Source: Candidatus Moraniibacteriota bacterium (GTDB lineage: Bacteria > Patescibacteriota > Minisyncoccia > Moranbacterales > DUUL01). Taken from it: DNA of 64,000 nt. The position numbers were made by a program, and so were the translations under genes. Under the pieces are notes generated by a model. It did not search any database. It worked only from the letters and a program-made list of their open reading frames with translations, and was not told the origin of the DNA. Each line of letters starts with the position of its first letter. Position 1 is the stretch's first letter. Location of the stretch: the NCBI GenBank assembly GCA_027008775.1, contig JALVDV010000010.1, positions 96,529 through 160,528 of the forward strand. The letters are read 5' to 3'. Shown here one piece after another: positions 28 through 60,387 of this stretch.

Positions 28-430
28 GGGGGTGACAGGCTTCGACAGGTTGAACTTTTAAAAACCGGCAAGTCAAGCTTGAAAACCATCTTGTAAAACT
101 GGTTTTCAAAGATTTAAGTGCAAATCTAAAAACAAGGGTAAAAACCGCTTTGGCAAATTTATTTGCCAAACCAAGTTTTGCCGCCGCTGTCGCCTAATTG
201 AGCGATAGCCCGTCAACTGACCGACACCTGATAGGTCAGCTTGGCGTCAATTTTCAGGTTGCGAGTATTTTTTCTTCTCTCAAAAAAAATACTCTAAGCG
301 CACTGAGAGACCAACTGTGAGTGTTTTGTTTGTTTAGAGCTCACTGTTGGTATCGCAAAACAAACTAAACTTGTAGAAGGTTTTTGGAAGTCAACTCTGG
401 ACATGGGTTCAAATCCCATCACCTCCACCA
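28..430 (+). ncRNA. ssrA: tmRNA (ssrA)
   Basis: The 5' end GGGGGTG pairs with the 3' CACCTCC, giving a G3:U70 wobble, followed by ACCA. A tRNA-like T-arm GGTTCAAATCC is present. An internal tag reading frame starts at the GCA resume codon at 153 and encodes ANLFAKPSFAAAVA before a TAA stop at 195-197. Confidence 0.85.
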
Positions 431-4033: not shown

Positions 4034-4205
4034 ATTTTCAGCTTTTGAAATTATTTTTACTGTTGGCAGTTTAACACCGGGTCAAAGGAAAAGCAAGGAA
4101 TTTTAGTTGACTTTCGGCTTACAATGTGCTAGCGTTTTGAGGTGTAGTACATTCAGACAATGCCCTGCTCTCAGGCAGGGTAAAAAAATCAAAGGAGGTT
4201 GTTGA

Positions 4206-4547
4206 ATGCCGAGAATTGAAATTAAAGAAGGCAGAATTGTCGGGAAGATGAAGAGAGATGGCAGGAATTGTTTGGAGGTGGTTCTAATAGATCTGGTTGA
4301 TGAGCCAAAAGTGCTGGGGTCAGCCATGATTACAGGAAGGGATTGCCGGAGCTGTACCATTGAAATACACCCGATCGGAGGGGCTATCGTTGTCACCCTC
4401 AAAAAGGGTGTGAATACCAGGACCTATGTATTGACATACGAGGTTCTGGTGGAAGAAGGGAGGAGAAAAAAAATTCTGGAGCTCATGCTCCAAAAAACAT
4501 ATTTCAGCAGAGTCTGGGGACGAAAGCTCCCCAAACGTGAAAAATAG
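4206..4547 (+). CDS. Hypothetical small protein (paralog 1)
   Basis: A strong SD (AAAGGAGG) lies 8 nt upstream. The protein is homologous to the ORF at 4830-5135 and is followed by its own terminator at about 4558-4600. Confidence 0.55.
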   Translation: MPRIEIKEGRIVGKMKRDGRNCLEVVLIDLVDEPKVLGSAMITGRDCRSCTIEIHPIGGAIVVTLKKGVNTRTYVLTYEVLVEEGRRKKILELMLQKTYFSRVWGRKLPKREK

Positions 4548-4829: not shown

Positions 4830-5135
4830 ATGCCAAAAATTTTTTTGGAAGAGGGAAAGGTGACAAAAATAATTAAGGATTTTGGAGAGAAGGATGTGTT
4901 ATATCTCTCTATTGAGGATCCGGTATCGGTCCGTAGCTATTTGATGGATGATACCGGAAAATTAACCGACAATAAGGCCGGGGTCAACGGTTCCTGGCCA
5001 GGCATTAAATATGCCGTTATCATCACTTCCATGCGTCCAATGGAAGTGATGTCAATTGAGTTCAGAAAAGGAGGCAGATACCTCCTGATATATTATGGAG
5101 GATCTGATTTTTCTTTTTTTAAGGCGACAGAATGA
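4830..5135 (+). CDS. Hypothetical small protein (paralog 2)
   Basis: Start from ATG at 4830, preceded by an AAAGGAGG SD. The N-terminus MPKIFLEEGKVTKI aligns with MPRIEIKEGRIVGK of paralog 1. Confidence 0.55.
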   Translation: MPKIFLEEGKVTKIIKDFGEKDVLYLSIEDPVSVRSYLMDDTGKLTDNKAGVNGSWPGIKYAVIITSMRPMEVMSIEFRKGGRYLLIYYGGSDFSFFKATE

Positions 5136-7046: not shown

Positions 7047-7120
7047 GGGGGCGTAGCTCAGCTGGTTAGAGCGTCTGCCTGTCACGCAGAAGGTCGAGGG
7101 TTCAAGTCCCTTCGTCCCCG
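7047..7120 (+). tRNA. tRNA-Asp(GTC)
   Basis: A cloverleaf was folded by eye with anticodon loop cTGTCAc. No CCA is encoded. Confidence 0.8.
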
Positions 7121-7128
7121 CTTTTTTC

Positions 7129-7202
7129 GGGCGTTTAGCTCAGGTGGTTAGAGCGCGTCGCTGATAACGACGAGGTCCCAGGTTCAAGTCCTGGATCGCC
7201 CA
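7129..7202 (+). tRNA. tRNA-Ile(GAT)
   Basis: The anticodon stem is cgtcg/cgacg and the loop is cTGATAa. Confidence 0.75.
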
Positions 7203-7238
7203 CATTTTGCCAGCGCATTGTTTGTAAATAATTTTTCG

Positions 7239-7311
7239 GGGCCGGTAGCTCACCTGGTAGAGCACCTCGTTTGCACCGAGGAGGTAGCGGGTTCAAGTCC
7301 TGTCCGGTCCA
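7239..7311 (+). tRNA. tRNA-Ala(TGC)
   Basis: The anticodon loop is tTTGCAc and the acceptor stem has the G3:U70 pair. Confidence 0.8.
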
Positions 7312-7395
7312 CAATGAGCCAACTATTGCTTTTTTGTCAAAAGTATGCTAGGTTTCTCTGGTACGGGTTGGCACAGTAATTGATAAGTAAAATAT

Positions 7396-9092: not shown

Positions 9093-9233
9093 TATGTTGT
9101 TGGGAAGGAGTGGTACTCTGAGCAAAGTCGCCGATGTGTTACTAAAAAATATTCCGGGATTGAGACTGGCAAGAAAGAAATAGTCCTCTTGGTAATTGAC
9201 TTTCTTGTCAAAAATGATACCATTTTGAGCAAT

Positions 9234-9307
9234 GTCCCGATAGCTCAGCTGGATAGAGCAACGGCCTTCTAAGCCGTAGGTCGCAGGTTCGAATCCTGCT
9301 CGGGACA
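9234..9307 (+). tRNA. tRNA-Arg(TCT)
   Basis: The anticodon loop is cTTCTAa and the acceptor stem gtcccga/tcgggac pairs. Confidence 0.8.
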
Positions 9308-9389
9308 CCCTAGAAAGTTGTAGATTGTGGGAAAAATGTGGTAAAATGATGGTGCCAGGAATATTGTTGAAAATGTAAATGCGCAAAGA

Positions 9390-9473
9390 GCCTCGGTGGC
9401 GGAATTGGTAGACGCGTTGGACTCAAAATCCAATGATAGCAATATCGTGAGAGTTCAAATCTCTCCCGAGGCA
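9390..9473 (+). tRNA. tRNA-Leu(CAA)
   Basis: There is a long variable arm, an anticodon loop cTCAAAa, and a gcctcgg/ccgaggc acceptor stem. Confidence 0.8.
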
Positions 9474-9534
9474 CACTAATAAATTTTATTTATTAAAAGG
9501 TCGAAAACATAATAAGTATTAAACACAAAAAAAA

Positions 9535-11671: not shown

Positions 11672-12385
11672 TCATTTTCCGGAGGCGACCACTAAAACGG
11701 TAAATTCTCCTCTGATTTTATCTTTGTTTTCTTGGTAGTGGTTTAGAATTTCCGATACCTCCCCTTCTCTGATTTCTTCAAATTTCTTGGATAATTCTCG
11801 TCCAACAATCATCTTAGCACCGGGAACGGTTTTTTGCAACAGCTCCAAGTTTTTGATGAGGCGGTAAGGCGATTCATAATAGAAAACCGGGTAGCCGTTT
11901 TCCAAAAGATTGCTTTTAACCTCTGCAAAAAAGTTTTTGCGCCCTTTTTTATTGGGAGGAAATCCCAGAAAAACAAATTTCTGTAAATTCACACCGGCCA
12001 CTGAAGCCAAGGTGGTCAAGGCACTGGGACCGGGAATGGGGATGATTTTTACTGTTGGAATTTGTTTCCTAACGGCAGCGACCAATTCATTACCCGGATC
12101 GGAAATACCGGGTGTTCCGGCATCGGTCACCAGGGCCAGATTTTTCCCTTCTCGTAGCTTGGAAATAATTTGTTCAACTTTGTTTTGTTTGCTTCTTTGA
12201 TGATAAGAGAGAAGCGGTTTTTTGATTTGGCAATGATTTAATAATTTGGCGGTGACTCTAGTGTCTTCACAAACGATAAAATCAACACTTTTGAGCGTTT
12301 CCAATGCCCTAAGAGTGATATCTTGAAGATTACCAATCGGAGTGGCTACGATGTAGAACATATTTTTCTCTTTCTTACTTTGCAT
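11672..12385 (-). CDS. rsmI: 16S rRNA (cytidine1402-2'-O)-methyltransferase
   Basis: The RsmI N-terminus is present (FYIVATPIGNLQDITLRALETLK…CEDTR). The start was trimmed to the internal ATG at 12385 to avoid overlapping smc. Confidence 0.8.
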   Translation of the reverse strand: MQSKKEKNMFYIVATPIGNLQDITLRALETLKSVDFIVCEDTRVTAKLLNHCQIKKPLLSYHQRSKQNKVEQIISKLREGKNLALVTDAGTPGISDPGNELVAAVRKQIPTVKIIPIPGPSALTTLASVAGVNLQKFVFLGFPPNKKGRKNFFAEVKSNLLENGYPVFYYESPYRLIKNLELLQKTVPGAKMIVGRELSKKFEEIREGEVSEILNHYQENKDKIRGEFTVLVVASGK

Positions 12386-22520: not shown

Positions 22521-22548
22521 ATTATATAATAAATTTCAAAAATGTCAA
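22521..22548 (-). promoter_or_regulatory. Putative nusA promoter TTGACA-N16-TATAAT
   Basis: Consensus hexamers lie on the minus strand about 75 nt upstream of the nusA ATG. Confidence 0.4.
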
Positions 22549-22583: not shown

Positions 22584-22620
22584 TTTTGTGTTTGACCCCG
22601 GCAACCGAAGGTTGCCGGGG
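22584..22620. repeat. Perfect 17-bp inverted repeat with a 3-nt loop
   Basis: The sequence is GTTTGACCCCGGCAACC-gaa-GGTTGCCGGGGTCAAAC. A second hairpin (AATAGGCA…TGCCTATT) plus a T-run follows on the + strand. Confidence 0.9.
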
Positions 22621-22724
22621 TCAAACTTTCAATAGGCATTTGCTTGCCTATTTTTTTTATTGGGTTACAATTTTGGTTAGAGGTTTAATTCGGATAGAAG
22701 TTTAAAAATTGACATTTATTTTTT

Positions 22725-30611: not shown

Positions 30612-32132
30612 CTAGCGGGCATATTCAACCGCTCTGGTTTCTCTGAGAAGATTTACTTTGATTTCTCCCGGATAATCTAAGTCTTCTTCTATTTTTTCCG
30701 CTATTTTTTTGGCCAATTTCAGAGCCCCCAAATCATCAACTTTTTCCGGGTCAACGAACACTCTGATCTCCCGACCGGCTTGGATAGCATAAGATTTATT
30801 TACTTCTTTAAAGCTGTTAGCCACCTCCTCTATTTCCTCAAGGCGTTTTAAGTAATTCTCCAAAGTATCTTTGCGAGCGCCGGGACGGGAAGCACTAAGA
30901 GCGTCGGCGGCGGCCACTATCAAGGCGTAATTATTTTCAAAAGGATAATCCTCGTGATGCGATTTCATGGCGTCAATCACTTCTTGCGGTTGTTTAAATT
31001 TTTTCAGAATACTAATTCCCAGCTCAACGTGGGTCCCCTGGATTTCACTGTCAACCGCTTTGCCAATATCGTGCAACAGTCCGGCTTTTTTAGCCAGATT
31101 GGCGTCCAATCCCAACTCAGAAGCCAAGTAGCCGGCCAGATGAGCCACCTCCAGGGAGTGCAATAGAACATTTTGGCCGAAACTGGTTCGGTAACGCAGG
31201 CGTCCCAACAATTGAGTTAATTTGGGGTCAAAGCCGGTGATACCAACATCGTAAACGGCCGCCTCTCCCGCTTCCATGGCTTTTTTGGAAACAAGTTCTT
31301 TGGCCTCCTTGACCGCTTCTTCAATTTTGGTGGGATGAATACGTCCGTCGGCCAGTAATTTTTCCAAGGCTAATCTAGCCACTTCCCTTCTGACGGGATT
31401 GAAGGCGGAAATAACAATCGCTTCCGGAGTATCATCAACAATAATTTCCGCTCCCGTCAGTCTTTCAATGGCCTTGATATTTCGTCCCTCACGGCCGATA
31501 ATTCTTCCCTTTAAATCATCCGATTCAATGGAAACAGTTGTGGTGGTTGTGTCGGCGCTATGAGAGCCGGCGTAACGTTGCATAGCCAAAGTCATAATAT
31601 CTTTCGCTTTTTCTTCCAAGACCTCCTTTTTTTGTTTTTCCAAGGAACTGATCGCCTTAGTCAACTCGTTCTTGTGCGCTTTTTCCATCAGAGAGATGAG
31701 AGCTTTTTTAGCTTCTTCTTTAGTCATTTTGGCCAATTTTTCCAATTTTTCCACTTGCCGGTTTTTGATTTCCAAGATTTCTTTTTGGATTTTTTTGACC
31801 TGCTTGGCTTTTTGTTTTAATTGATTTTCCTCTTTTTCCAATTTGGCTATTTTTTGGTCAAGCCTTTGTTCTTTCTGCTCTAGGCGATCCTCTCTCTGCT
31901 GGATAGCGTTTCTTCTTTTTAACTCTTCTTTTTTGGTTTCCTCTAAAATTCTGACCGCTTTACTCTTGGCATCCAAGAGTTTTTCCTTGGCTTTAATTTT
32001 CGCCTCTTCCAGCAGACTGTTGGCCTTGCTCTCAGCGCTGTCAATTTTCTTGCCGACGATTATTTTTCGTAATAAATAACCCAAAAAGCCGCCTACCAGA
32101 AAACTTACCGTCAGGAAAAGTATGCTATTCAT
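30612..32132 (-). CDS. rny: Ribonuclease Y
   Basis: It has an N-terminal TM segment, a coiled coil, a KH domain and an HD domain (LLHDIGKA). Confidence 0.9.
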   Translation of the reverse strand: MNSILFLTVSFLVGGFLGYLLRKIIVGKKIDSAESKANSLLEEAKIKAKEKLLDAKSKAVRILEETKKEELKRRNAIQQREDRLEQKEQRLDQKIAKLEKEENQLKQKAKQVKKIQKEILEIKNRQVEKLEKLAKMTKEEAKKALISLMEKAHKNELTKAISSLEKQKKEVLEEKAKDIMTLAMQRYAGSHSADTTTTTVSIESDDLKGRIIGREGRNIKAIERLTGAEIIVDDTPEAIVISAFNPVRREVARLALEKLLADGRIHPTKIEEAVKEAKELVSKKAMEAGEAAVYDVGITGFDPKLTQLLGRLRYRTSFGQNVLLHSLEVAHLAGYLASELGLDANLAKKAGLLHDIGKAVDSEIQGTHVELGISILKKFKQPQEVIDAMKSHHEDYPFENNYALIVAAADALSASRPGARKDTLENYLKRLEEIEEVANSFKEVNKSYAIQAGREIRVFVDPEKVDDLGALKLAKKIAEKIEEDLDYPGEIKVNLLRETRAVEYAR

Positions 32133-36649: not shown

Positions 36650-38404
36650 CTACACCACCCCTTTTTTCTTCATAAAGGCCAAGATACCAACGGTGATTAA
36701 GGTAGAGAAGAGAACCAAGAGAACAATGTTGGTGGCCAAACCGGTCTTGGGAGCGGAGCGACGGTAACCAAAGTCAGCCTTGGTGTGTTCGTCTTTTTCT
36801 TTGAGTTTAACAGAGGTTTGGTTGTCCAGTTTACCATCGGGGTCGTAGGTTGGAATTAGATTCTCAACATCTTTAACTACCACCCGATAATGTCCGGAGC
36901 AAAGATTCTTAATCTTGTAACGACCATGTTTGTCAGTGGTGTCACAGTATTTCTTGTTACCGCGAAAAGCGCAGACTTTAACATCAGAAATTCCTTCTTC
37001 AATATCTTCTTGAATACCGTTACCATTGGTGTCATACCAAATATAGTTGCCAATGGAAGATTGACAATCTTCTTCCTCTTCTTTTCTTTCTTCTTTGAGT
37101 TTGACGGTAACCTGATCAGAGTCGGTAATGGTTTTGGAACCAAGCTTGGCGGTAACCGTTACTTTGTTGGTGGTATCTTGGTTGATGACCACTGACTTGG
37201 TACAACTCATAGCTTCGCCAACATTCAAAGAAGTCTGGGGACAGGTGATGGTTCCCAATTGATCATCTTGAACTTGAATGTTGGTTAGTTTAGTGTCGCC
37301 GGTGTTAGTGATACGATAAGTGTAAGTGACTGTTTCTCCTTTTTTTACTTCAGTGGCGGAAGCGCTTTTTTCAACTCTAACGCCGGTGTTTTCTTTTTGA
37401 CAAACACTACTGCAACCATCGCCACTGACAGTGTTGCCGTCATCGCATTCTTCGGAGTCTTGTTTAAGGCCGTCTCCGCATTTACCTCCTTGAACAACTA
37501 CGTTTTTACAGTCACTGGAACAATAGGTACAAGAACTGTTGTAAGCCGGGGTACAAGTTTGGCCGTTGTTAGCGCCTTCATCGCATTGTTCGCCACTTTC
37601 TTTGGTGCCATTACCACAGTTGGGAGAAGGAGAAGTTTCTTTTTGACAAACACTACTACAACCATCGCCACTGACAGTGTTGCCGTCATCGCATTCTTCT
37701 CCGTCTTCCAAAACTCCGTTACCACATTGGGGAGAAGGAGTTTCATTAACTTTCTCCAAAAGCATACAAACGGGCTCAAAGCCGTGTTTGAACTTTACTC
37801 CCTTGGGTCCGGCGTGGACCACTTTGATTTGGCGCAAAGGAGAAGTTATTTGCAGAGCAGAGGAACCATAGTTAACAGCAGTGATTTTACCGGCTTCTTC
37901 CACGCCATCGGGCAGGTCTTCCGTTGTGCCGGAACGAACTCCGTTAAAGTCTATGTAGTACTGTTCGTGAGATTCATCAGCCGGGTTGGCTTGACTGCGA
38001 CCGACATAGCTGTCAAAGGATTCCAGATAAACGTTGTACTTGCCGGCGGGGATGGAGATTCCAGAAACAGTCTTTTCCCTGGGGAAATTGTGACCGTTTA
38101 AAACTCCGCCGTCGGAAACCATAATGTCACCATTGTACTTGATAAGGATATCCCCTTGTTTCTTGGTTTGCAGATGACAAACTCCGGAACAGTGATTGGC
38201 CAGATAAGTGGTGGTTTGGCGAAGGTCTTGGTTGAGAGAAGCAATCTTTTGGTTTTGCGACTGAAGGAGAACAGCGCCGAAAGCCAACAAAACAATCAGC
38301 AATAAAAAGATTCCTCCCACCAAGAGAGGTTTACGCCAAGACCATTGGTAACGAGAAGAACGGCGAGATCTTCTTGGACCACTGCTTTTTTTTCTTTGCA
38401 CCAT
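36650..38404 (-). CDS. Surface protein with Myxococcus-type Cys-rich repeats, a DUF11 domain, an SdrD-B-like domain and a C-terminal sortase-type sorting signal (copy A)
   Basis: An N-terminal TM/signal segment is followed by two CDDGNTVSGDGCSSVC repeats and then an SdrD-B-like domain. The C-terminus carries a sortase-type signal: SAPKTGLAT, a hydrophobic stretch, then KKKGVV. Confidence 0.7.
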   Translation of the reverse strand: MVQRKKSSGPRRSRRSSRYQWSWRKPLLVGGIFLLLIVLLAFGAVLLQSQNQKIASLNQDLRQTTTYLANHCSGVCHLQTKKQGDILIKYNGDIMVSDGGVLNGHNFPREKTVSGISIPAGKYNVYLESFDSYVGRSQANPADESHEQYYIDFNGVRSGTTEDLPDGVEEAGKITAVNYGSSALQITSPLRQIKVVHAGPKGVKFKHGFEPVCMLLEKVNETPSPQCGNGVLEDGEECDDGNTVSGDGCSSVCQKETSPSPNCGNGTKESGEQCDEGANNGQTCTPAYNSSCTYCSSDCKNVVVQGGKCGDGLKQDSEECDDGNTVSGDGCSSVCQKENTGVRVEKSASATEVKKGETVTYTYRITNTGDTKLTNIQVQDDQLGTITCPQTSLNVGEAMSCTKSVVINQDTTNKVTVTAKLGSKTITDSDQVTVKLKEERKEEEEDCQSSIGNYIWYDTNGNGIQEDIEEGISDVKVCAFRGNKKYCDTTDKHGRYKIKNLCSGHYRVVVKDVENLIPTYDPDGKLDNQTSVKLKEKDEHTKADFGYRRSAPKTGLATNIVLLVLFSTLITVGILAFMKKKGVV

Positions 38405-42583: not shown

Positions 42584-42745
42584 AAATTTTCTTTAGTTTT
42601 TAAGTCTTTAAAAACCTGTTTTAATTTAGCACCAAAGAAATAGCTTGTCTAGCAAAATCGCCGGAAGATCAACTTTCGGAGGCGGTTGAAAAAGAAAACA
42701 GCCATTGCCCGGTTAGAGACAATGGCTGCGGAGAGGCCAGGAGAA

Positions 42746-43345
42746 TTATTTAATCTTTCTTCTCCCGACCAGGCCCAGGCCGGCGAGGCCTGAGCCGAAA
42801 AGGAGGATGGTCGCCGGCTCGGGCACCGGGGCTGGCGGGTTATCCACGGAAATCTCCGTTAGCTGGAGATTCCCGCACAAACCTCCGATGGCGACGACCA
42901 TGTCGTCGCGATCCCAGTCACTCCACCTGGAGGGCAGGTCCTCCAGGTGGATACTCCAGATTCCCGGAGCCGGCTGGTTCCAGAAAACGTGCTGGATTCC
43001 CTGGTCTTCGGGGGAATTCAACCGGGGATCGCTGTACCAGTCGTACAGCTCCCCAGAGGGGCTGTATGTTTGGAAATGGATTCCGAAAGACTGGAATCCA
43101 TCCCAATCATTGGCGGAGAAGGTCTGCCAGCTCCCGGGCTCGTCGCCCGCCTGGAGGACGGGCAACTGGTTTTGGGGATCGTCGGTTTTGTAGAAAAACA
43201 GTGACGATTCCCAGGATGCTTCTTCCTGGACGTCAACGACAAAAAGGCTGCCGTCCAGTTTGAAGATTGGGATTACCTGCGTGGCATTGGCCACACAGGT
43301 GAAAAAGAATAGAAAAAATAAAAATAAAAGTGGGATTTTTTTCAT
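42746..43345 (-). CDS. Secreted protein with a C-terminal PEP-CTERM sorting signal, strongly GC-shifted
   Basis: The signal peptide MKKIPLLFLFFLFFFTCVANA is AT-rich. The C-terminus reads VPEPATILLFGSGLAGLGLVGRRKIK, which is PEP, then a TM segment, then an RRK basic tail. Body codons end mostly in G or C. Confidence 0.75.
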   Translation of the reverse strand: MKKIPLLFLFFLFFFTCVANATQVIPIFKLDGSLFVVDVQEEASWESSLFFYKTDDPQNQLPVLQAGDEPGSWQTFSANDWDGFQSFGIHFQTYSPSGELYDWYSDPRLNSPEDQGIQHVFWNQPAPGIWSIHLEDLPSRWSDWDRDDMVVAIGGLCGNLQLTEISVDNPPAPVPEPATILLFGSGLAGLGLVGRRKIK

Positions 43346-43495
43346 TTTTTACCTCCCATTTCTGTGTCTCCCTGCCCCCAGGGAGACAATAAAAAGAACT
43401 AGCGACAATGGGGCTATTGCCACTTTTACTTTAAAAAATCTATCCCACCTCCTTTCATTCATTTTATTTAACGGACTTAATTAGTCCGACTTGGC

Positions 43496-43525
43496 ATTGT
43501 AAAACAGAAGTGGGTGACTGTCAAG
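43496..43525 (-). promoter_or_regulatory. Exact consensus promoter TTGACA-N17-TACAAT for the PEP-CTERM gene
   Basis: The exact hexamers with a 17-nt spacer read on the minus strand. They lie directly after a terminator hairpin at 43528..43557. Confidence 0.6.
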
Positions 43526-43593: not shown

Positions 43594-44622
43594 TTATTTA
43601 TTTTCCAATTCAGCCACTTTAGCCTGCAAATCACGGATTTCCTTTTGTTGCTCTTTGACTGCTTCAATCAAAACTCCAACCAGACCGTCATAGTCAACTG
43701 TTTTGTAGCCATTGGGGCTCTCATTAACCAAGCTGGGGAAGTCTTTTTCAATTTCTTGAGCGATTACTCCGATATTTTTCTGGTCATTGCTTTTCAATTT
43801 ATACTCCACTCCGCGAATGTTCTCCAATCTCTGTAAAGCATTTTCCACTGTTTTGATGTCTTTTTTTAATCTAACATCAGAGCCCCGACGGAAATTGGCT
43901 GCCCAGACATCAGCAAATTGTCCTTTACCTTTACCAACTACCAAGCCGGCATTTCTGCTTCTGGATCCATCCACTCTAATCCCGATGGATCCGGCCAGGC
44001 TGGGAGCGTTGGGAGAAACATCAAAAGCGTAAATCCAGGGACCCCGGGTGTTATCAACTTTTTGATATTCACTGTTGTTAGTGACAGTGCCAATTCTAAA
44101 TTTGCCCTGAGAGACGAAAGTTTTACCAAAAATGTTAGCGTACTGGTTGTGACCGCGACCAACTACCAAAGCGCTATCCGGTCCTTGATTGCCAACGCGG
44201 ATACCGATGCTTCCGTTCATATTGCTCACGCCCGGCACTTGATTGATGGCATAAATCCAGGGTCCTCTCATCGCATCTATTCGGTTGTACCCGGCGGTGC
44301 TGTTAACCATTCCTATTTGCAGATACGGACCGGAGGCCTGGGCTCCTTGAGCATACAATCTGACAGCGCCGTTGGCAAAAATATTACCATTAGCCAACAA
44401 GGCTGTGCTTCGGTTACCGGCAACGTTAACGGCCAAACCGCCGTCTTTAGCTTGCCAAATTGGGCCGGTGTTTAAAGGCGCTTTCAAGTTACTGGCCGGG
44501 GGATTGGAAGATGGCTCCGTCCAATTGGTTGATTGGGCACTGGTTGATTGGACATAAACCAAGGCTGCCAAAGCAACAAGTCCCGTCGCAACCACCATTT
44601 TGAATTTACTATTCATTTTCAT
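43594..44622 (-). CDS. Secreted tail-fibre-like protein with a C-terminal peptidase S74 intramolecular-chaperone domain
   Basis: It has a signal peptide and two internal roughly 100-aa repeats. The C-terminus reads SDVRLKKDI…GVEYK…IGVIAQEIEKDFPSLV…VDYDGLVGVLIEAVKEQQKEIRDL, which matches the auto-cleaving chaperone of phage tail spikes. Confidence 0.7.
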   Translation of the reverse strand: MKMNSKFKMVVATGLVALAALVYVQSTSAQSTNWTEPSSNPPASNLKAPLNTGPIWQAKDGGLAVNVAGNRSTALLANGNIFANGAVRLYAQGAQASGPYLQIGMVNSTAGYNRIDAMRGPWIYAINQVPGVSNMNGSIGIRVGNQGPDSALVVGRGHNQYANIFGKTFVSQGKFRIGTVTNNSEYQKVDNTRGPWIYAFDVSPNAPSLAGSIGIRVDGSRSRNAGLVVGKGKGQFADVWAANFRRGSDVRLKKDIKTVENALQRLENIRGVEYKLKSNDQKNIGVIAQEIEKDFPSLVNESPNGYKTVDYDGLVGVLIEAVKEQQKEIRDLQAKVAELENK

Positions 44623-44686
44623 TTTGCTTTTTTATTAATTAATTTGTTATATTTAAAAAATTTTAAACCTTATTTGTTGATTACCA

Positions 44687-44974
44687 CTATTCTCCCATTA
44701 CCTGGGAAAGCTGATCTCTATTCATTTGAGTAACAGCCCCGTCCTGTCTGTTCATTATCTCCGAGAGTTTGTTGGCGTTGATTTTGGCCGGTTTAATATC
44801 GGAGGAATTTGATTTACTGCCCGAACCACCCAAGATGGCTGTTTTGGTAATGTCAAAATTAACTCCACTGGCGTTAATTAAATAAACCAAAAAGCCGGCC
44901 AGAATGAAAGATACCACCACCACAAAAGCTATGACCCTTACTTTCTCGGCTGATTTTTCCTTTTGTCTGTTCAT
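44687..44974 (-). CDS. Small single-TM protein
   Basis: It has an N-terminal TM anchor. Confidence 0.4.
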   Translation of the reverse strand: MNRQKEKSAEKVRVIAFVVVVSFILAGFLVYLINASGVNFDITKTAILGGSGSKSNSSDIKPAKINANKLSEIMNRQDGAVTQMNRDQLSQVMGE

Positions 44975-45019
44975 TTATTTGTTTGAAATTTTATTTGTTA
45001 GAATTATCTACCAGGCCCC

Positions 45020-45874
45020 CTAGTTAACTTTAACCGGTAAACTCGTTTCCAAATTATGATAGTTGTATTTGACCTGGACATTTCCGTTACCCTTATTTTT
45101 GGCTTGAATAATCTTGTTAACCTCTCCCGCCAAATCAAAGGCTGAAGAATTTTCCGTCCAGGTGGCCAAACCGGTGACATCTAAACCGGAACAACTGTTT
45201 TTAGAAGCGGAAAGACAAGCTTTGAGGTTTTTATTATCGCCCTCACTCATCGTTAAGCTTGTGAGAGGATTGTTGTTGCCACAAGTATTTTCACAGATAA
45301 CCAAATTTTTGCCAAAAGAATCTATTCCACAGGCTTTGGCCTGACCGAAACTTACCCAACCAAGCTCATTAGACCAGGCGTAACCGGACAGTTTCCCGTG
45401 AGAATCCAGATGGACTCCGTAGTCTTGCCCGTTTGTAACTTTTCCCCTCATCTTTATCCAACCTCTCCAACCACCAGAATTGTTTATTTTTTCCTCTTGA
45501 GCGATGCCCACAATTCTGGCCCAACCGGTCAAATTGTTACCTTCTTTTCTTACCCCTCCTTTATCTCCATTGGGCGCGTTGCAATTGGCTTGGTAAGCGC
45601 TTCCACAATGCTCTTGGGGACTAAAGTCCACCCAGCCCAGATTGGAACTCCAGGCGTAACCGGTAATATTACCGTCACCGCTTGGTATTTTTAAATTATA
45701 AGAAATACTGCCGTTTTGGTTGGCATTGGTGGCGCTAATCCAACCAAAATTAGTGTTGCTGCCAGCCCAAAACCAACCGACAATATTATTGTCATTAGGG
45801 GCGGCTTTGACTAGAAAGGTAATTCCAATAATTGCCAAACTGAGCAGAGAACCGTAGATTATTTTTTTGAGCAT
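45020..45874 (-). CDS. Secreted protein with tandem G(Y/W)AWS…LGW(V/I)xF repeats
   Basis: A signal peptide is followed by at least three aromatic GW repeats and a Cys-rich C-terminal part. Confidence 0.5.
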   Translation of the reverse strand: MLKKIIYGSLLSLAIIGITFLVKAAPNDNNIVGWFWAGSNTNFGWISATNANQNGSISYNLKIPSGDGNITGYAWSSNLGWVDFSPQEHCGSAYQANCNAPNGDKGGVRKEGNNLTGWARIVGIAQEEKINNSGGWRGWIKMRGKVTNGQDYGVHLDSHGKLSGYAWSNELGWVSFGQAKACGIDSFGKNLVICENTCGNNNPLTSLTMSEGDNKNLKACLSASKNSCSGLDVTGLATWTENSSAFDLAGEVNKIIQAKNKGNGNVQVKYNYHNLETSLPVKVN

Positions 45875-46024
45875 ATTTTTGTTTTGAGATTTATTTTAAA
45901 AACCGTGATTGCTTTTGTCTCTATTTTAAGTCATAAAAAAAATCCTGTCAAAGTTTTCAGTGTTTCCTTGTGTTTGGATTATAGCATAACTTCTAATTCC
46001 TAACAACTTTAGTCAACCGGAAAA

Positions 46025-48400: not shown

Positions 48401-48555
48401 AAAAATGACGACACTAAAAAAATTTAGAAAATTTTGTTCCGGGTTTCATTCTGCTTGTCACATTATACTAAAAAACAAAACACCGGGCAAACGAATCGGT
48501 TTTAGATATGAAAAAAGCGGAAGCTTCGGCTTCCGCTGAGAAACCATTTTTCCCC

Positions 48556-49032
48556 TCACCTCCTTGGTGGAGGTGGAGGTGGAGATGGAGATGGAGGGTG
48601 TCGCCTCATCGGTTGCCCCTGGTGATAATAAGGGGCGGAGCGCTGAGACGCCGATGCCGGCGGTGGAGGGGGCACCGCCTGCACCTGTGATGGACGAGGT
48701 GTTGGCGTTGGAGGAGGGGGTGAGATATACCTCGCCCGTTGCCCCTGCTGATAATAAGAGGCGGACCGGCGAGGTGTTGGCGCCGGAGGGGGCGCCGGGC
48801 GGGGGAAGCGCTCTTGGAGACAGACACGTTGTCCCCCTAGGTACACGCAAACCCGGCCGAAACGCCGGGTTGCGTACGCCCCGTGATTTTTCCCCCACAG
48901 CTGAAGGCTGTGGGAAGAAAATTTGAATCCCTTCCCCCGGAACTCCCAAAAAATACTTGGGAGTTCCCACTGGGCCAGAACCGGCCCAGTGGAAAAAATG
49001 AAAAAAATAAAAAATAAAAAAATTTTTTTCAT
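48556..49032 (-). CDS. Secreted proline-rich repeat protein, GC-shifted
   Basis: A strong SD (GAAGGAGGT) precedes the ATG. The signal peptide MKKIFLFFIFFIFSTGPVLAQ is AT-rich. The body is a Pro-rich tandem repeat of the form RSAxYYxQGQ…PPPP. Confidence 0.6.
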   Translation of the reverse strand: MKKIFLFFIFFIFSTGPVLAQWELPSIFWEFRGKGFKFSSHSLQLWGKNHGAYATRRFGRVCVYLGGQRVCLQERFPRPAPPPAPTPRRSASYYQQGQRARYISPPPPTPTPRPSQVQAVPPPPPASASQRSAPYYHQGQPMRRHPPSPSPPPPPPRR

Positions 49033-49101
49033 ACTACCTCCTTCGCCCCGATTACCGGGGCTCTAAATTTTTTTAATTTTATAAGGTACTCATCTGCCTT
49101 G

Positions 49102-49130
49102 ATTGTACAACATTTTTGGAAAAATGTCAA
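49102..49130 (-). promoter_or_regulatory. Exact consensus promoter TTGACA-N17-TACAAT for the Pro-rich protein gene
   Basis: Read on the minus strand, the 5'UTR then contains a GCCCCGG-taat-CGGGGC hairpin immediately before the SD. Confidence 0.6.
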
Positions 49131-49278
49131 TGGTTTAAAGAACTCGTCAGGCGCGATAAGGTGGCTTACGTTGGCTGAGCAACCCTCCCCGACCGGGGTT
49201 TTTGCTCGGCTTTTTCAGCTAGAAAAATACGTTCTAAGACTGGAAAATTCCAGCGCATTAGAAATGAAGTTGATAAAA

Positions 49279-50367: not shown

Positions 50368-50597
50368 ATTTTTAGTTGAATTCGTTAAAAGATGGTTGAA
50401 TAGTTTGCGCAAAATAAAAAATCCGCCAACGGCAGACCAAAGACAAAACAATAATTTTACTTTCTCCTCGTTAGGACTTACGGTTGCCTAAGGTCTACGG
50501 ATTTTCTATTCGGTTGTGCTTGTTATTCTAGCAGAGAAAAAAATATTGTCAAGGTTTGAGAATATTTTTCGGGAGGTAGCCGACTAGAGGTACCCGG
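50368..50597 (-). promoter_or_regulatory. Candidate L10 (rplJ) leader 5'UTR
   Basis: A roughly 230-nt structured untranslated region lies upstream of rplJ. This is the position of the L10-L12 autoregulatory leader in many bacteria. Confidence 0.3.
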
Positions 50598-51256: not shown

Positions 51257-51285
51257 TTGACATTTAGTTGTTTATTTGTTACAAT
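51257..51285 (+). promoter_or_regulatory. Exact consensus promoter TTGACA-N17-TACAAT for rpmB
   Basis: The exact hexamers lie about 70 nt upstream of the rpmB ATG. Confidence 0.6.
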
Positions 51286-58298: not shown

Positions 58299-60053
58299 CT
58301 AAACCACCCCTTTTTTCTTCATAAAGGCCAAGATACCAACGGTGATTAAGGTAGAGAAGAGAACCAAGAGAACAATGTTGGTGGCCAAACCGGTCTTGGG
58401 AGCGGAGCGACGGTAACCAAAGTCAGCCTTGGTGTGTTCGTCTTTTTCTTTGAGTTTAACAGAGGTTTGGTTGTCCAGTTTACCATCGGGGTCGTAGGTT
58501 GGAATTAGATTCTCAACATCTTTAACTACCACCCGATAATGTCCGGAGCAAAGATTCTTAATCTTGTAACGACCATGTTTGTCAGTGGTGTCACAGTATT
58601 TCTTGTTACCGCGAAAAGCGCAGACTTTAACATCAGAAATTCCTTCTTCAATATCTTCTTGAATACCGTTACCATTGGTGTCATACCAAATATAGTTGCC
58701 AATGGAAGATTGACAATCTTCTTCCTCTTCTTTTCTTTCTTCTTTGAGTTTGACGGTAACCTGATCAGAGTCGGTAATGGTTTTGGAACCAAGCTTGGCG
58801 GTAACCGTTACTTTGTTGGTGGTATCTTGGTTGATGACCACTGACTTGGTACAACTCATAGCTTCGCCAACATTCAAAGAAGTCTGGGGACAGGTGATGG
58901 TTCCCAATTGATCATCTTGAACTTGAATGTTGGTTAGTTTAGTGTCGCCGGTGTTAGTGATACGATAAGTGTAAGTGACTGTTTCTCCTTTTTTTACTTC
59001 AGTGGCGGAAGCGCTTTTTTCAACTCTAACGCCGGTGTTTTCTTTTTGACAAACACTACTGCAACCATCGCCACTGACAGTGTTGCCGTCATCGCATTCT
59101 TCGGAGTCTTGTTTAAGGCCGTCTCCGCATTTACCTCCTTGAACAACTACGTTTTTACAGTCACTGGAACAATAGGTACAAGAACTGTTGTAAGCCGGGG
59201 TACAAGTTTGGCCGTTGTTAGCGCCTTCATCGCATTGTTCGCCACTTTCTTTGGTGCCATTACCACAGTTGGGAGAAGGAGAAGTTTCTTTTTGACAAAC
59301 ACTACTACAACCATCGCCACTGACAGTGTTGCCGTCATCGCATTCTTCTCCGTCTTCCAAAACTCCGTTACCACATTGGGGAGAAGGAGTTTCATTAACT
59401 TTCTCCAAAAGCATACAAACGGGCTCAAAGCCGTGTTTGAACTTTACTCCCTTGGGTCCGGCGTGGACCACTTTGATTTGGCGCAAAGGAGAAGTTATTT
59501 GCAGAGCAGAGGAACCATAGTTAACAGCAGTGATTTTACCGGCTTCTTCCACGCCATCGGGCAGGTCTTCCGTTGTGCCGGAACGAACTCCGTTAAAGTC
59601 TATGTAGTACTGTTCGTGAGATTCATCAGCCGGGTTGGCTTGACTGCGACCGACATAGCTGTCAAAGGATTCCAGATAAACGTTGTACTTGCCGGCGGGG
59701 ATGGAGATTCCAGAAACAGTCTTTTCCCTGGGGAAATTGTGACCGTTTAAAACTCCGCCGTCGGAAACCATAATGTCACCATTGTACTTGATAAGGATAT
59801 CCCCTTGTTTCTTGGTTTGCAGATGACAAACTCCGGAACAGTGATTGGCCAGATAAGTGGTGGTTTGGCGAAGGTTTTGGTTGAGAGAAGCAATCTTCTG
59901 GTTTTGCGACTGAAGGAGAACAGCGCCGAAAGCCAACAAAACAATCAGTAATAAAAAGATTCCTCCCACCAAGAGAGGCTTACGCCAAGACCATTGGTAA
60001 CGAGAAGAACGGCGAGATCTTCTTGGACCACTGCTTTTTTTTCTTTGCACCAT
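58299..60053 (-). CDS. Surface protein with Cys-rich repeats, DUF11, SdrD-B-like domain and C-terminal sorting signal (copy B)
   Basis: Starting from MVQRKK it is 584 aa and about 99% identical to copy A, with one D/N difference seen. Confidence 0.7.
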   Translation of the reverse strand: MVQRKKSSGPRRSRRSSRYQWSWRKPLLVGGIFLLLIVLLAFGAVLLQSQNQKIASLNQNLRQTTTYLANHCSGVCHLQTKKQGDILIKYNGDIMVSDGGVLNGHNFPREKTVSGISIPAGKYNVYLESFDSYVGRSQANPADESHEQYYIDFNGVRSGTTEDLPDGVEEAGKITAVNYGSSALQITSPLRQIKVVHAGPKGVKFKHGFEPVCMLLEKVNETPSPQCGNGVLEDGEECDDGNTVSGDGCSSVCQKETSPSPNCGNGTKESGEQCDEGANNGQTCTPAYNSSCTYCSSDCKNVVVQGGKCGDGLKQDSEECDDGNTVSGDGCSSVCQKENTGVRVEKSASATEVKKGETVTYTYRITNTGDTKLTNIQVQDDQLGTITCPQTSLNVGEAMSCTKSVVINQDTTNKVTVTAKLGSKTITDSDQVTVKLKEERKEEEEDCQSSIGNYIWYDTNGNGIQEDIEEGISDVKVCAFRGNKKYCDTTDKHGRYKIKNLCSGHYRVVVKDVENLIPTYDPDGKLDNQTSVKLKEKDEHTKADFGYRRSAPKTGLATNIVLLVLFSTLITVGILAFMKKKGVV

Positions 60054-60140
60054 GCTATTTGTTTTTATTTTTTTAAGGAAAAGCAAAAAGACAATTATTT
60101 CTTCGCTTAGATTGTAACACAAAAGGGAATTGGGGGCAAT
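58303..60140 (-). repeat. 1.84-kb direct repeat, copy B
   Basis: It is near-identical to 36654..38490 with one homopolymer indel. The upstream non-coding part is more diverged than the coding part. Confidence 0.95.
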
Positions 60141-60387
60141 TGATCGCATCAAAAAGCATCATTGATAAATCATTGGAAATGACGCCAAGATTCGGATAAA
60201 ATATGCTATTTTATTTTTTATTTTGCGCGTTCTTGGTCTGAGATATTCGTTTTATATTTTACAAATATTTACGGTTATTTTATTTTTTCTGAAACACAAA
60301 CAAATGCTCATGCATAATCAGAAGAAAGTTATATTTCTTGGACCGCTCCACCCAAAACCCAGTCGCTTGGCAATATCAGTTTCGTAA

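Follow-up and report, generated by a model that had tools for sequence, protein, structure and literature searches.

Do the two GC-rich genes on the minus strand of a 64,000-nt stretch of DNA from Candidatus Moraniibacteriota bacterium (contig JALVDV010000010.1, positions 96,529 to 160,528; hereafter the window) owe their expression to a common, specialized module? Gene A (42746..43345, minus strand; 199 aa; GC 0.55) encodes a secreted PEP-CTERM protein and gene B (48556..49032, minus strand; 158 aa; GC 0.58) a secreted orphan protein. A preliminary description, made from the sequence alone, had pointed out that each combines an exact TTGACA-N17-TACAAT promoter with a GC-rich hairpin 5' of a strong Shine–Dalgarno (SD) sequence and a signal peptide of the MKK/poly-Phe kind. 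The combination is indeed present on the minus strand at both genes, and the signal peptides are as quoted there. We found that the SD-proximal hairpin is the first of 20–28 conserved hairpins that tile each whole transcript, coding sequence included, and that this structure is restricted to A and B. It is most likely an extreme, lineage-specific variant of known mRNA-stabilising structure.

Hairpins along two whole transcripts

Folded as whole transcripts, A (801 nt) and B (586 nt) have z scores of -17.3 and -12.9. A scan covered the whole window in 320 tiles of 200 nt (mean z -0.7, sd 1.8); no tile of A or B ranks below 18th in structure, and 17 of the window's 50 perfect GC-rich hairpins fall within the 1.4 kb of A and B. 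For the coding sequences, the minimum free energy (MFE) is -285.8 for A (shuffles: -204.9) and -224.0 for B (shuffles: -160.7), in both cases ~39% lower. With dinucleotide shuffles as the reference, the corresponding z scores are -9.9 (A) and -9.8 (B); with synonymous-codon shuffles they are -8.3 and -11.2. The scores of nine control genes span +1.0 to -5.7, those of seven among them +1.0 to -1.6; the controls include two small SD-bearing genes, g4206 (z -3.2) and g4830 (z -5.7). About two thirds of the coding nucleotides of gene A are paired, and its GC content at third codon positions (GC3) is 0.69, against 0.39–0.51 in the other genes measured. The dinucleotide, synonymous-codon and local 200-nt shuffles exclude GC content as the source of the excess folding. 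High transcription alone does not produce such hairpins either, since the coding sequence of rplL folds ordinarily (z -1.4) despite the near-consensus promoter of its rplJ operon.

Conservation of the pairing and its origin

Syntenic orthologues of gene A were collected by exact-protein look-up on public contigs (designated by L numbers): L003 (83% amino acid identity), L004 (70%) and L005 (72%), with distant homologues on L007 (37%) and L009 (31%). Orthologues of gene B are present on L003 and L006, on L025 and partly on L027. The close orthologues are structured as well (z -10.7, -16.5 and -19.5 for A; -7.0 and -9.1 for B), whereas the distant homologues of A on L007 and L009 are ordinary (z -1.8 and -0.8), with GC3 of 0.42 and 0.39 compared with 0.61–0.69 in the clade. 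The structure therefore arose within this lineage on an older protein family. Further homologues of A in GTDB genomes were limited to the PEP-CTERM tails of unrelated bacteria, and two scans of JGI metagenomes gave no further orthologue of B.

An alignment of four gene A sequences was folded with RNAalifold, giving 261 pairs in 28 helices that extend from the 5' end through the terminator. 96.8% of the pair cells are paired (40–52% when the partners are slid), and 19 pairs have changed on both sides, compared with three to seven in the slid controls and 8.9+-2.0 in shuffles (none of 500 reached 19). The pairing is kept despite synonymous divergence (dS) of up to 0.76. Third codon positions are also constrained in the stems: 42% of paired third positions are variable versus 66% of unpaired ones (p=0.003, with the structure predicted from the window sequence alone), a result that is similar with L003 or L004 as the reference, though not with L005. 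In gene B, 95.9% of the cells are paired.

Both A and B are truly coding and under purifying selection, with ratios of nonsynonymous to synonymous divergence (dN/dS) of 0.15–0.24 and 0.17–0.28, respectively. The gene A protein has an N-terminal signal peptide and, at its C-terminus, a PEP motif, a transmembrane helix and a basic tail (PF07589, 29.7 bits for a cut-off of 20.7; TIGR02595, 23.9 bits for a cut-off of 16); no cognate exosortase was seen among the ~40 window open reading frames (ORFs) scanned. In the gene B protein a signal peptide precedes a conserved core, and Pro-rich repeats form the tail. Neither Pfam nor NCBIfam gives a match, and an exhaustive profile search of 1.84 billion representatives returned one relative cluster only (P0008), so the protein is, by these searches, an orphan. 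Its orthologues (333, 468 and 471 nt) remain in frame and differ in the Pro-rich tail by indels that preserve the frame. The reading of gene B as a non-coding RNA, or as an ORF in the wrong frame, was rejected on the grounds of these in-frame orthologues, the dN/dS values and a terminator placed after the stop codon; the overlapping 170-aa ORF reads through that terminator.

Structure of this kind could in principle be a mutational by-product, with perfect inverted repeats made and homogenized in DNA by intrastrand template switching or repeat conversion and without any RNA function. The stems are near-perfect Watson–Crick helices (7.6% G.U, against ~12% in controls), antisense folding is about equally good for the window, L003 and all B sequences, and single template-switch events could give double changes. 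There is also a precedent, together with a conversion hypothesis, in the coding palindromes of Nematomorpha mitochondria, whose long, perfect repeats reach 284 bp and are dynamic in evolution (PMC6649704). But the hairpins occur in only two (perhaps four) of ~70 genes and not in rplL, their positions are held over dS of 0.4–0.8, and the rise in GC3 is limited to this clade. While the MFE of sense and antisense does not separate the strands, the helices that are found on both strands contain 40 G.U cells on the sense strand against 17 A.C cells, favouring the sense strand. Gene specificity, positional conservation, this sense-biased wobble and the third-position constraint argue against the mutational model as sole cause, and we consider it an unlikely account.

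Single helices provide examples of such wobble. In the SD-proximal hairpin of gene B (helix 2), two independent C->U changes, in L027 and L025, give U.G in the sense RNA and A.C on the other strand; a role of this hairpin as a plus-strand terminator of antisense transcripts (a T-run follows it on the plus strand) is unlikely because these changes pair only in the sense RNA. In gene A, the window has two substitutions leading to G.U in helix 3 where the orthologues pair Watson–Crick, and helix 4, paired at 100% in the four orthologues, contains one A->G change giving U.G.

The hairpins of A and B share with the Nematomorpha palindromes and the Rickettsia palindromic elements (RPEs) the presence of inverted repeats inside translated sequence with protein function retained. 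They differ from the former in that their stems are short (6–13 bp), gene-tiling, G.U-tolerant and not copies of one element, and from the latter in that RPEs are a dispersed repeat family. Dispersed palindromes like the RPEs or the repetitive extragenic palindromic (REP) elements were looked for, and the A and B hairpins are similar neither to one another nor to any other part of the window; an origin as copies of some mobile palindrome was accordingly rejected.

Promoters, leaders and the start-codon window

The gene A promoter (TTGACA-gtcacccacttctgttt-TACAAT; 43496..43524, minus strand) is an exact match whose higher coordinate is one position short of the 43525 first given, and the gene B promoter (TTGACA-tttttccaaaaatgttg-TACAAT; 49102..49130, minus strand) is an exact match at precisely the coordinates described; both spacers are N17. 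The sequences upstream of the two genes thus have the -35 TTGACA, -10 TAnAAT and 17+-1 nt spacing of sigma-70 promoters. For gene A, L003, L004 and L005 all retain both hexamers and the 17-nt spacing, even though ~10 of the 17 spacer positions are different in L005; for gene B, the -10 is TATAAT in L006, L025, L027 and L028. Judged by this conservation of hexamers and spacing despite spacer divergence, both promoters are probably functional in the evolutionary sense. The two SD-proximal hairpins, too, persist at orthologous loci, also where the loop sequence is no longer the same.

The promoter is, however, not restricted to these genes in the way that a gene-specific module, as had been suggested, would be. 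The exact pattern occurs three times in the window (0.03 expected; three reached in none of 100 shuffles), and the third copy (51257..51285, plus strand) lies ahead of rpmB. Sites matching 11 of 12 consensus positions lie ahead of rplJ (50525..50552), the gene of a 284-aa secreted protein (45923..45951), the nusA region (22521..22548) and others. TTGACA-N17-TACAAT is the ordinary strong sigma-70-type promoter of this organism. The combination of promoter, hairpin and SD is a different matter: it is not ubiquitous, since nine neighbouring genes have neither GGAG nor such a hairpin, and of ~70 genes only three (A, B and g4206) have an SD with a perfect GC-rich hairpin in the 20 nt on its 5' side.

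A generic promoter and the GC hairpin that stands 13 nt 5' of the SD of g4206 are what one would expect if A and B were nothing special, i.e. two ordinary genes that have good promoters and, by chance, a hairpin close to the SD. With z scores of -10 to -19, native energies reached by no shuffle, a structure conserved with covariation, and A and B as extreme outliers of the window scan, we regard this as very improbable.

The proposal that A and B were built on the same template holds for their self-contained architecture; common descent is not borne out. When the loci were compared by blastn-short, the sole similarity was a 16-nt A/T run at the start codon, and the untranslated regions (UTRs) differ, as do the hairpins in sequence and size. 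The signal peptides (MKK followed by poly-Phe/Ile/Leu, encoded by AAA and UUU-type codons) are not conserved as sequences, being MKKTFLSIIFFICSI in L005 and MKKFLFPLLIFIVF in L027. The architecture is thus common to the two genes but not homologous.

Transcription starts of both genes were inferred from the promoter hexamers (that of A from the -10 only), giving 5'UTRs of ~145 nt for A and ~62 nt for B. The gene A 5'UTR contains four conserved elements, all on the minus strand. The first is a perfect 5'-terminal stem-loop, CGGACU-AAUUA-AGUCCG (43472..43488), 1–4 nt past the inferred start, which is helix 1 of the alignment and is kept in the four orthologues. The second is a stand-alone SD-like sequence, AAAGGAGGUG followed by [AU] (43446..43455), ~100 nt 5' of the start codon, of which AAAGGAGGTG(AT) does not vary among the window, L003, L004 and L005; the motif recurs in the 5'UTR of the distant homologue on L007. 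The third is a terminator-like hairpin with a U-run, AGUGGCAA-UAGCCCCA-UUGUCGCU (43391..43424; helix 3), possibly an attenuator or a stabiliser. The fourth is the SD-proximal GC hairpin, UGUCUCCCUG-GGGG-CAGGGAGACA (43365..43388; helix 4), of 10 bp including a flanking T-A pair. Its core, GTCTCCCTG-GGGG-CAGGGAGAC, has a 4-nt loop instead of the 'ggggc' first reported, and the hairpin does not directly abut the SD: seven nucleotides (CAGAAAT) lie between it and GGGAGGT. The SD itself (GGGAGGU, 43351..43357) is as described, at a spacing of 5 nt from the ATG instead of 6. The transcript closes with an intrinsic terminator (42698..42729; 13-bp stem and U-run) that is invariant in the four orthologues.

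The first two elements of the gene A leader recall the STAB-SD (stabilising SD) sequences and 5'-terminal stem-loops that stabilise mRNAs in Gram-positives, e.g. that of Bacillus thuringiensis cry3A (Agaisse & Lereclus 1996; reviewed in PMC4113751). Gene A has a perfect SD-like AAAGGAGGUG[AU] with no usable or conserved start codon and a stem-loop at its inferred 5' end; neither a start codon nor a reading frame is conserved after the motif, and by its sequence gene A (and only gene A) thus resembles a STAB-SD leader, with an SD-like sequence in the 5'UTR from which initiation apparently does not take place. Gene B has neither element, and the structure proposed here would run through the whole coding sequence and not the leader alone. 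An upstream ORF in the A leader (MNERRW..., ending at the SD) was rejected, as L003 and L004 carry a stop after five codons. RNAalifold also pairs the stand-alone SD (43446-43456; columns 47-57 of alignment A3) with CAUCCUCCUUUU (42772-42783; columns 713-724), which lies 660 nt downstream where the PEP-CTERM part is encoded; this pairing is 100% kept, via G.U in L003 and L005, and may be either an artefact of the folding or a 5'-3' interaction.

In gene B the leader has only the SD-abutting hairpin, GCCCCG-GUAAU-CGGGGC (49045..49061, minus strand), with a conserved A-tract 5' of it. The hairpin adjoins GAAGGAGGT without a gap, followed by AGT-ATG; the SD, GAAGGAGGU, occupies 49036..49044 (minus strand), 3 nt ahead of the ATG. 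Hairpin and adjacency are therefore as first described, and the split is to be read as a 6-bp stem with a 5-nt loop (GCCCCG-gtaat-CGGGGC) instead of GCCCCGG-taat-CGGGGC. A 4-nt indel leaves the stem intact in L003 and L006, its length there being 8 bp. The intrinsic terminator (48516..48537, minus strand; 9-bp stem and U-run) is conserved.

A and B carry strong SDs in an SD-poor organism: GGAG is absent within 20 nt of the start codon from rplL, rplJ, rpmB, the gene of an S74-domain protein, that of the 284-aa protein, parA, parB, rnhA and manC, and of 121 GGAGG sites in the window ~9 precede a real long ORF. In both genes the initiation region is the sole AU-rich segment, lying between the UTR hairpin and a hairpin of 10–11 bp at about codons 14–25, and it is predicted to pair weakly with U-rich signal-peptide codons. 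The predicted probability of being unpaired is 0.29 (A) and 0.12 (B) for the SD, falling to 0.01 for B at 15 C, as compared with 0.35–0.82 for the SD region of nine neighbours; for the AUG it is 0.01 and 0.09.

This predicted pairing raises the alternative of a translational switch: SD, AUG and a run of seven As would pair with U/C-rich signal-peptide codons in an A-U/G.U helix between two GC clamps or insulators (the GC hairpins), and the helix would open on temperature or on a trans-acting factor, in the manner of a fourU-type RNA thermometer. Although their sequences differ, the window, L005, L025 and L027 each have an MFE fold in which the SD or AUG region is paired with downstream U/C-rich codons, and helix 5 of the gene A alignment has four pairs changed on both sides. 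A helix of an A-run with a U-run is of low complexity, though, with a high chance of fortuitous pairing and of alignment ambiguity, and a switch leaves unexplained the hairpins along the other >=500 nt of each coding sequence. The likeness to fourU and ROSE thermometers lies in the predicted weak A-U and G.U pairing of SD and AUG with a U-rich stretch; here, by contrast, the pairing partner would be inside the coding sequence and the GC hairpins exclude the SD. The idea that the GC hairpin itself acts as a thermometer-type occluder of the SD fails on the folded 5'UTRs, since both GC hairpins end 5' of the SD; SD occlusion, if real, would not involve them. No thermometer or leader family was matched at either locus: with Rfam 15, only the transfer-messenger RNA (tmRNA) and tRNAs in the window reached the gathering score, and searches of both loci in E-value mode gave only scores far below it. 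A known riboswitch, leader or small RNA at A or B was rejected on this basis, and a switch at the start codon seems to us improbable as the explanation of the whole structure. The tmRNA gene (28-430, plus strand; 160 bits) has the tag ANLKTRVKTALANLFAKPSFAAAVA, and the tRNA genes lie at 7047-7312 and 9233-9474.

Function, genomic context and implications

We infer, with a probability of about one half, that A and B are self-contained, monocistronic, high-expression and nuclease-resistant units for abundant secreted or surface proteins, in which the hairpins stabilise the mRNA. Each has a consensus promoter, a structured 5'UTR, a strong SD, an AT-rich signal-peptide leader, a GC-rich body and a strong terminator. 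In the proposed mechanism the whole mRNA would have been reshaped as a succession of stable local hairpins across 5'UTR, coding sequence and 3' end, those of the coding sequence being obtained by raised GC3 and codon choice. A window of ~60 nt at the start codon would be the only AU-rich, weakly folded stretch and would hold the strong SD, with the SD-adjacent hairpin as its 5' boundary clamp; the leader of gene A would contribute its 5'-terminal stem-loop and its STAB-SD-type element. The hairpins would leave endonucleases (e.g. RNase Y) little single-stranded RNA and would block exonucleases, so that the messages would be long-lived, and the strong SD would load ribosomes in one open window. 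The suggested role in stability and high expression draws on the presence of all classical expression and stability elements together, on a decay context of RNase Y type and on the ordinary fold of rplL. An RNase Y-like ORF with KH and HD domains (30612..31619, minus strand) points to mRNA decay of a probable Gram-positive type; the window yielded no RNase J gene.

Highly structured, long-lived mRNAs are known for abundant envelope proteins, such as those of Escherichia coli lpp and ompA and of S-layer genes, and coding sequences rich in structure reportedly lengthen functional half-life. A and B resemble these envelope genes in being monocistronic, with a strong promoter, structured RNA, a strong terminator and a secreted or envelope product. 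They differ in degree, which is far greater here (coding MFE ~39–51% below shuffles), in the back-to-back conserved hairpins and in the lineage-specific rise of GC3; the abundance of the A and B products is putative. Consecutive favoured stem-loops through coding sequence, seen as an MFE difference (MFED) from shuffles, also characterize the GORS (genome-scale ordered RNA structure) of RNA viruses, for which the excess is 7–9% in hepatitis C virus, ~15% in SARS-CoV-2 and at most 23% genome-wide (PMC7642675). The excess here is ~39–51% for whole coding sequences against <=23%, values obtained with differing methods; and while GORS pairings are poorly conserved, those of A and B keep their positions, with covariation, and belong to cellular DNA genes.

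The structure could also have been selected for another purpose, e.g. keeping Rho or single-strand RNA-binding factors off a membrane-targeted transcript, or pacing ribosomes for secretion or folding. Sec-type signal peptides on both products, the PEP-CTERM anchor on A and a structure that spans the coding sequence and not the UTRs alone would suit such purposes. Yet secreted proteins of the same block as A (the S74-domain protein, 43594..44622, and the 284-aa protein, 45020..45874) are encoded by sequences that fold ordinarily (z -0.7 and -1.6), and the distant PEP-CTERM homologues are unstructured; we think a purpose of this kind rather doubtful.

Several observations weigh against the stability interpretation. 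There are four to five closely related sequences per locus, and the covariation in gene B is not significant (four pairs versus 1.8+-0.9; 14 of 500 shuffles), its orthologues being too close. The near-perfect Watson–Crick stems and similar antisense folding leave a DNA-level origin of the stems conceivable. Gene B has ~34 nt of unstructured 5' leader, without a 5'-terminal hairpin or STAB-SD. The predicted pairing of SD and AUG would fit regulated rather than maximal translation, bearing in mind that it involves low-complexity sequence. Finally, gene B is missing or replaced in two very close relatives, L021 and L026, and hence dispensable.

The last point is part of a wider variability. Relatives of the window's ParB are annotated as Patescibacteria, Moranbacteria or Parcubacteria. 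In two of the relatives, L029 and L030 (~62% ParB identity), the order rpmB-rplJL-parAB-rnhA-manC-secA is kept, and gene B and the four-gene block ending with A are absent. L021 and L026 encode the same rplL protein as the window; their sequence diverges completely from that of the window just 5' of the gene B -35, and the gene B cassette thus appears to be missing or replaced. A large number of public contigs stop at gene A or gene B or contain nothing else (L002, L006, L022-L028), which suggests strain-level variability or assembly difficulty at these loci. Given these absences, divergences and contig breaks, the A and B units are recent, discrete and variable.

Some further features of these surroundings were recorded. 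The block upstream of A (43594-45874, minus strand) encodes a 342-aa protein with a Peptidase_S74 domain (tail-fibre-like; endosialidase chaperone), a membrane protein of 95 aa and the secreted protein of 284 aa; it is lineage-specific, absent from L029 and L030, and folds normally. Between the rplL terminator and the B promoter, ~140 nt (49131-49270) are conserved and structured (GAGCAAAAACCCCGGTCGGGGAGGGTTGCTC...), are kept in L021 and L026 without gene B and have no Rfam match; this stretch could be a small RNA or a regulatory site. L030, which lacks gene A, has a long imperfect hairpin of ~165 nt (its positions 11820-11985) in the rnhA-manC gap (11697-11995, 299 nt; fold z -8.4).

Elsewhere in the window, two plus-strand genes (4163-4547 and 4830-5135) encode small proteins with similar N-termini (MPRIEIKEGR and MPKIFLEEGK), no Pfam match and strong SDs. 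Their coding sequences are moderately hairpin-rich (z -3.2 and -5.7), the GC hairpin of g4206 is CCCTGC-tctcag-GCAGGG, 13 nt 5' of the SD, and the two genes may be milder members of the class of A and B. A 17-bp perfect GC-rich hairpin, GTTTGACCCCGGCAACC-gaa-GGTTGCCGGGGTCAAAC (22590-22626), with no T-run after it on either strand, stands beside the near-consensus promoter at 22521-22548 (minus strand). Two paralogous large surface proteins (36650-38302 and 58299-60149, both minus strand; DUF4215, DUF7507, DUF11 and SdrD_B) have near-identical 30-nt stretches around two internal or upstream GGAGG sites. The AT-rich segment 60001-64000 (GC 0.27–0.33, against ~0.40 elsewhere), with a DUF4238 gene in it, may be a foreign island.

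A bolder and more tentative proposal is that a lineage of Patescibacteria rewrote the entire messages of two secreted-protein genes (an orphan and an old member of the PEP-CTERM family) into unbroken arrays of hairpins whose positions are conserved, as a cellular 'armoured mRNA' strategy that has not been described. The SD-proximal hairpin and the SD would then be adaptations that hold one ribosome-entry window open. The folding excess, at ~40–50%, lies above the genome-wide values reported for RNA viruses, with the proteins still under purifying selection. If the hairpin tiling is selected, it would be a natural case of how far a coding sequence can bend to RNA structure without losing its protein. 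For annotation, the loci matter because gene callers skipped gene B in two assemblies (L019 and L020) and contigs often break at A and B. The finding bears on SD-independent versus SD-dependent initiation, the SD appearing here where the mRNA is structured, on mRNA design, and on how mRNA lifetime may be controlled in bacteria with few regulators.

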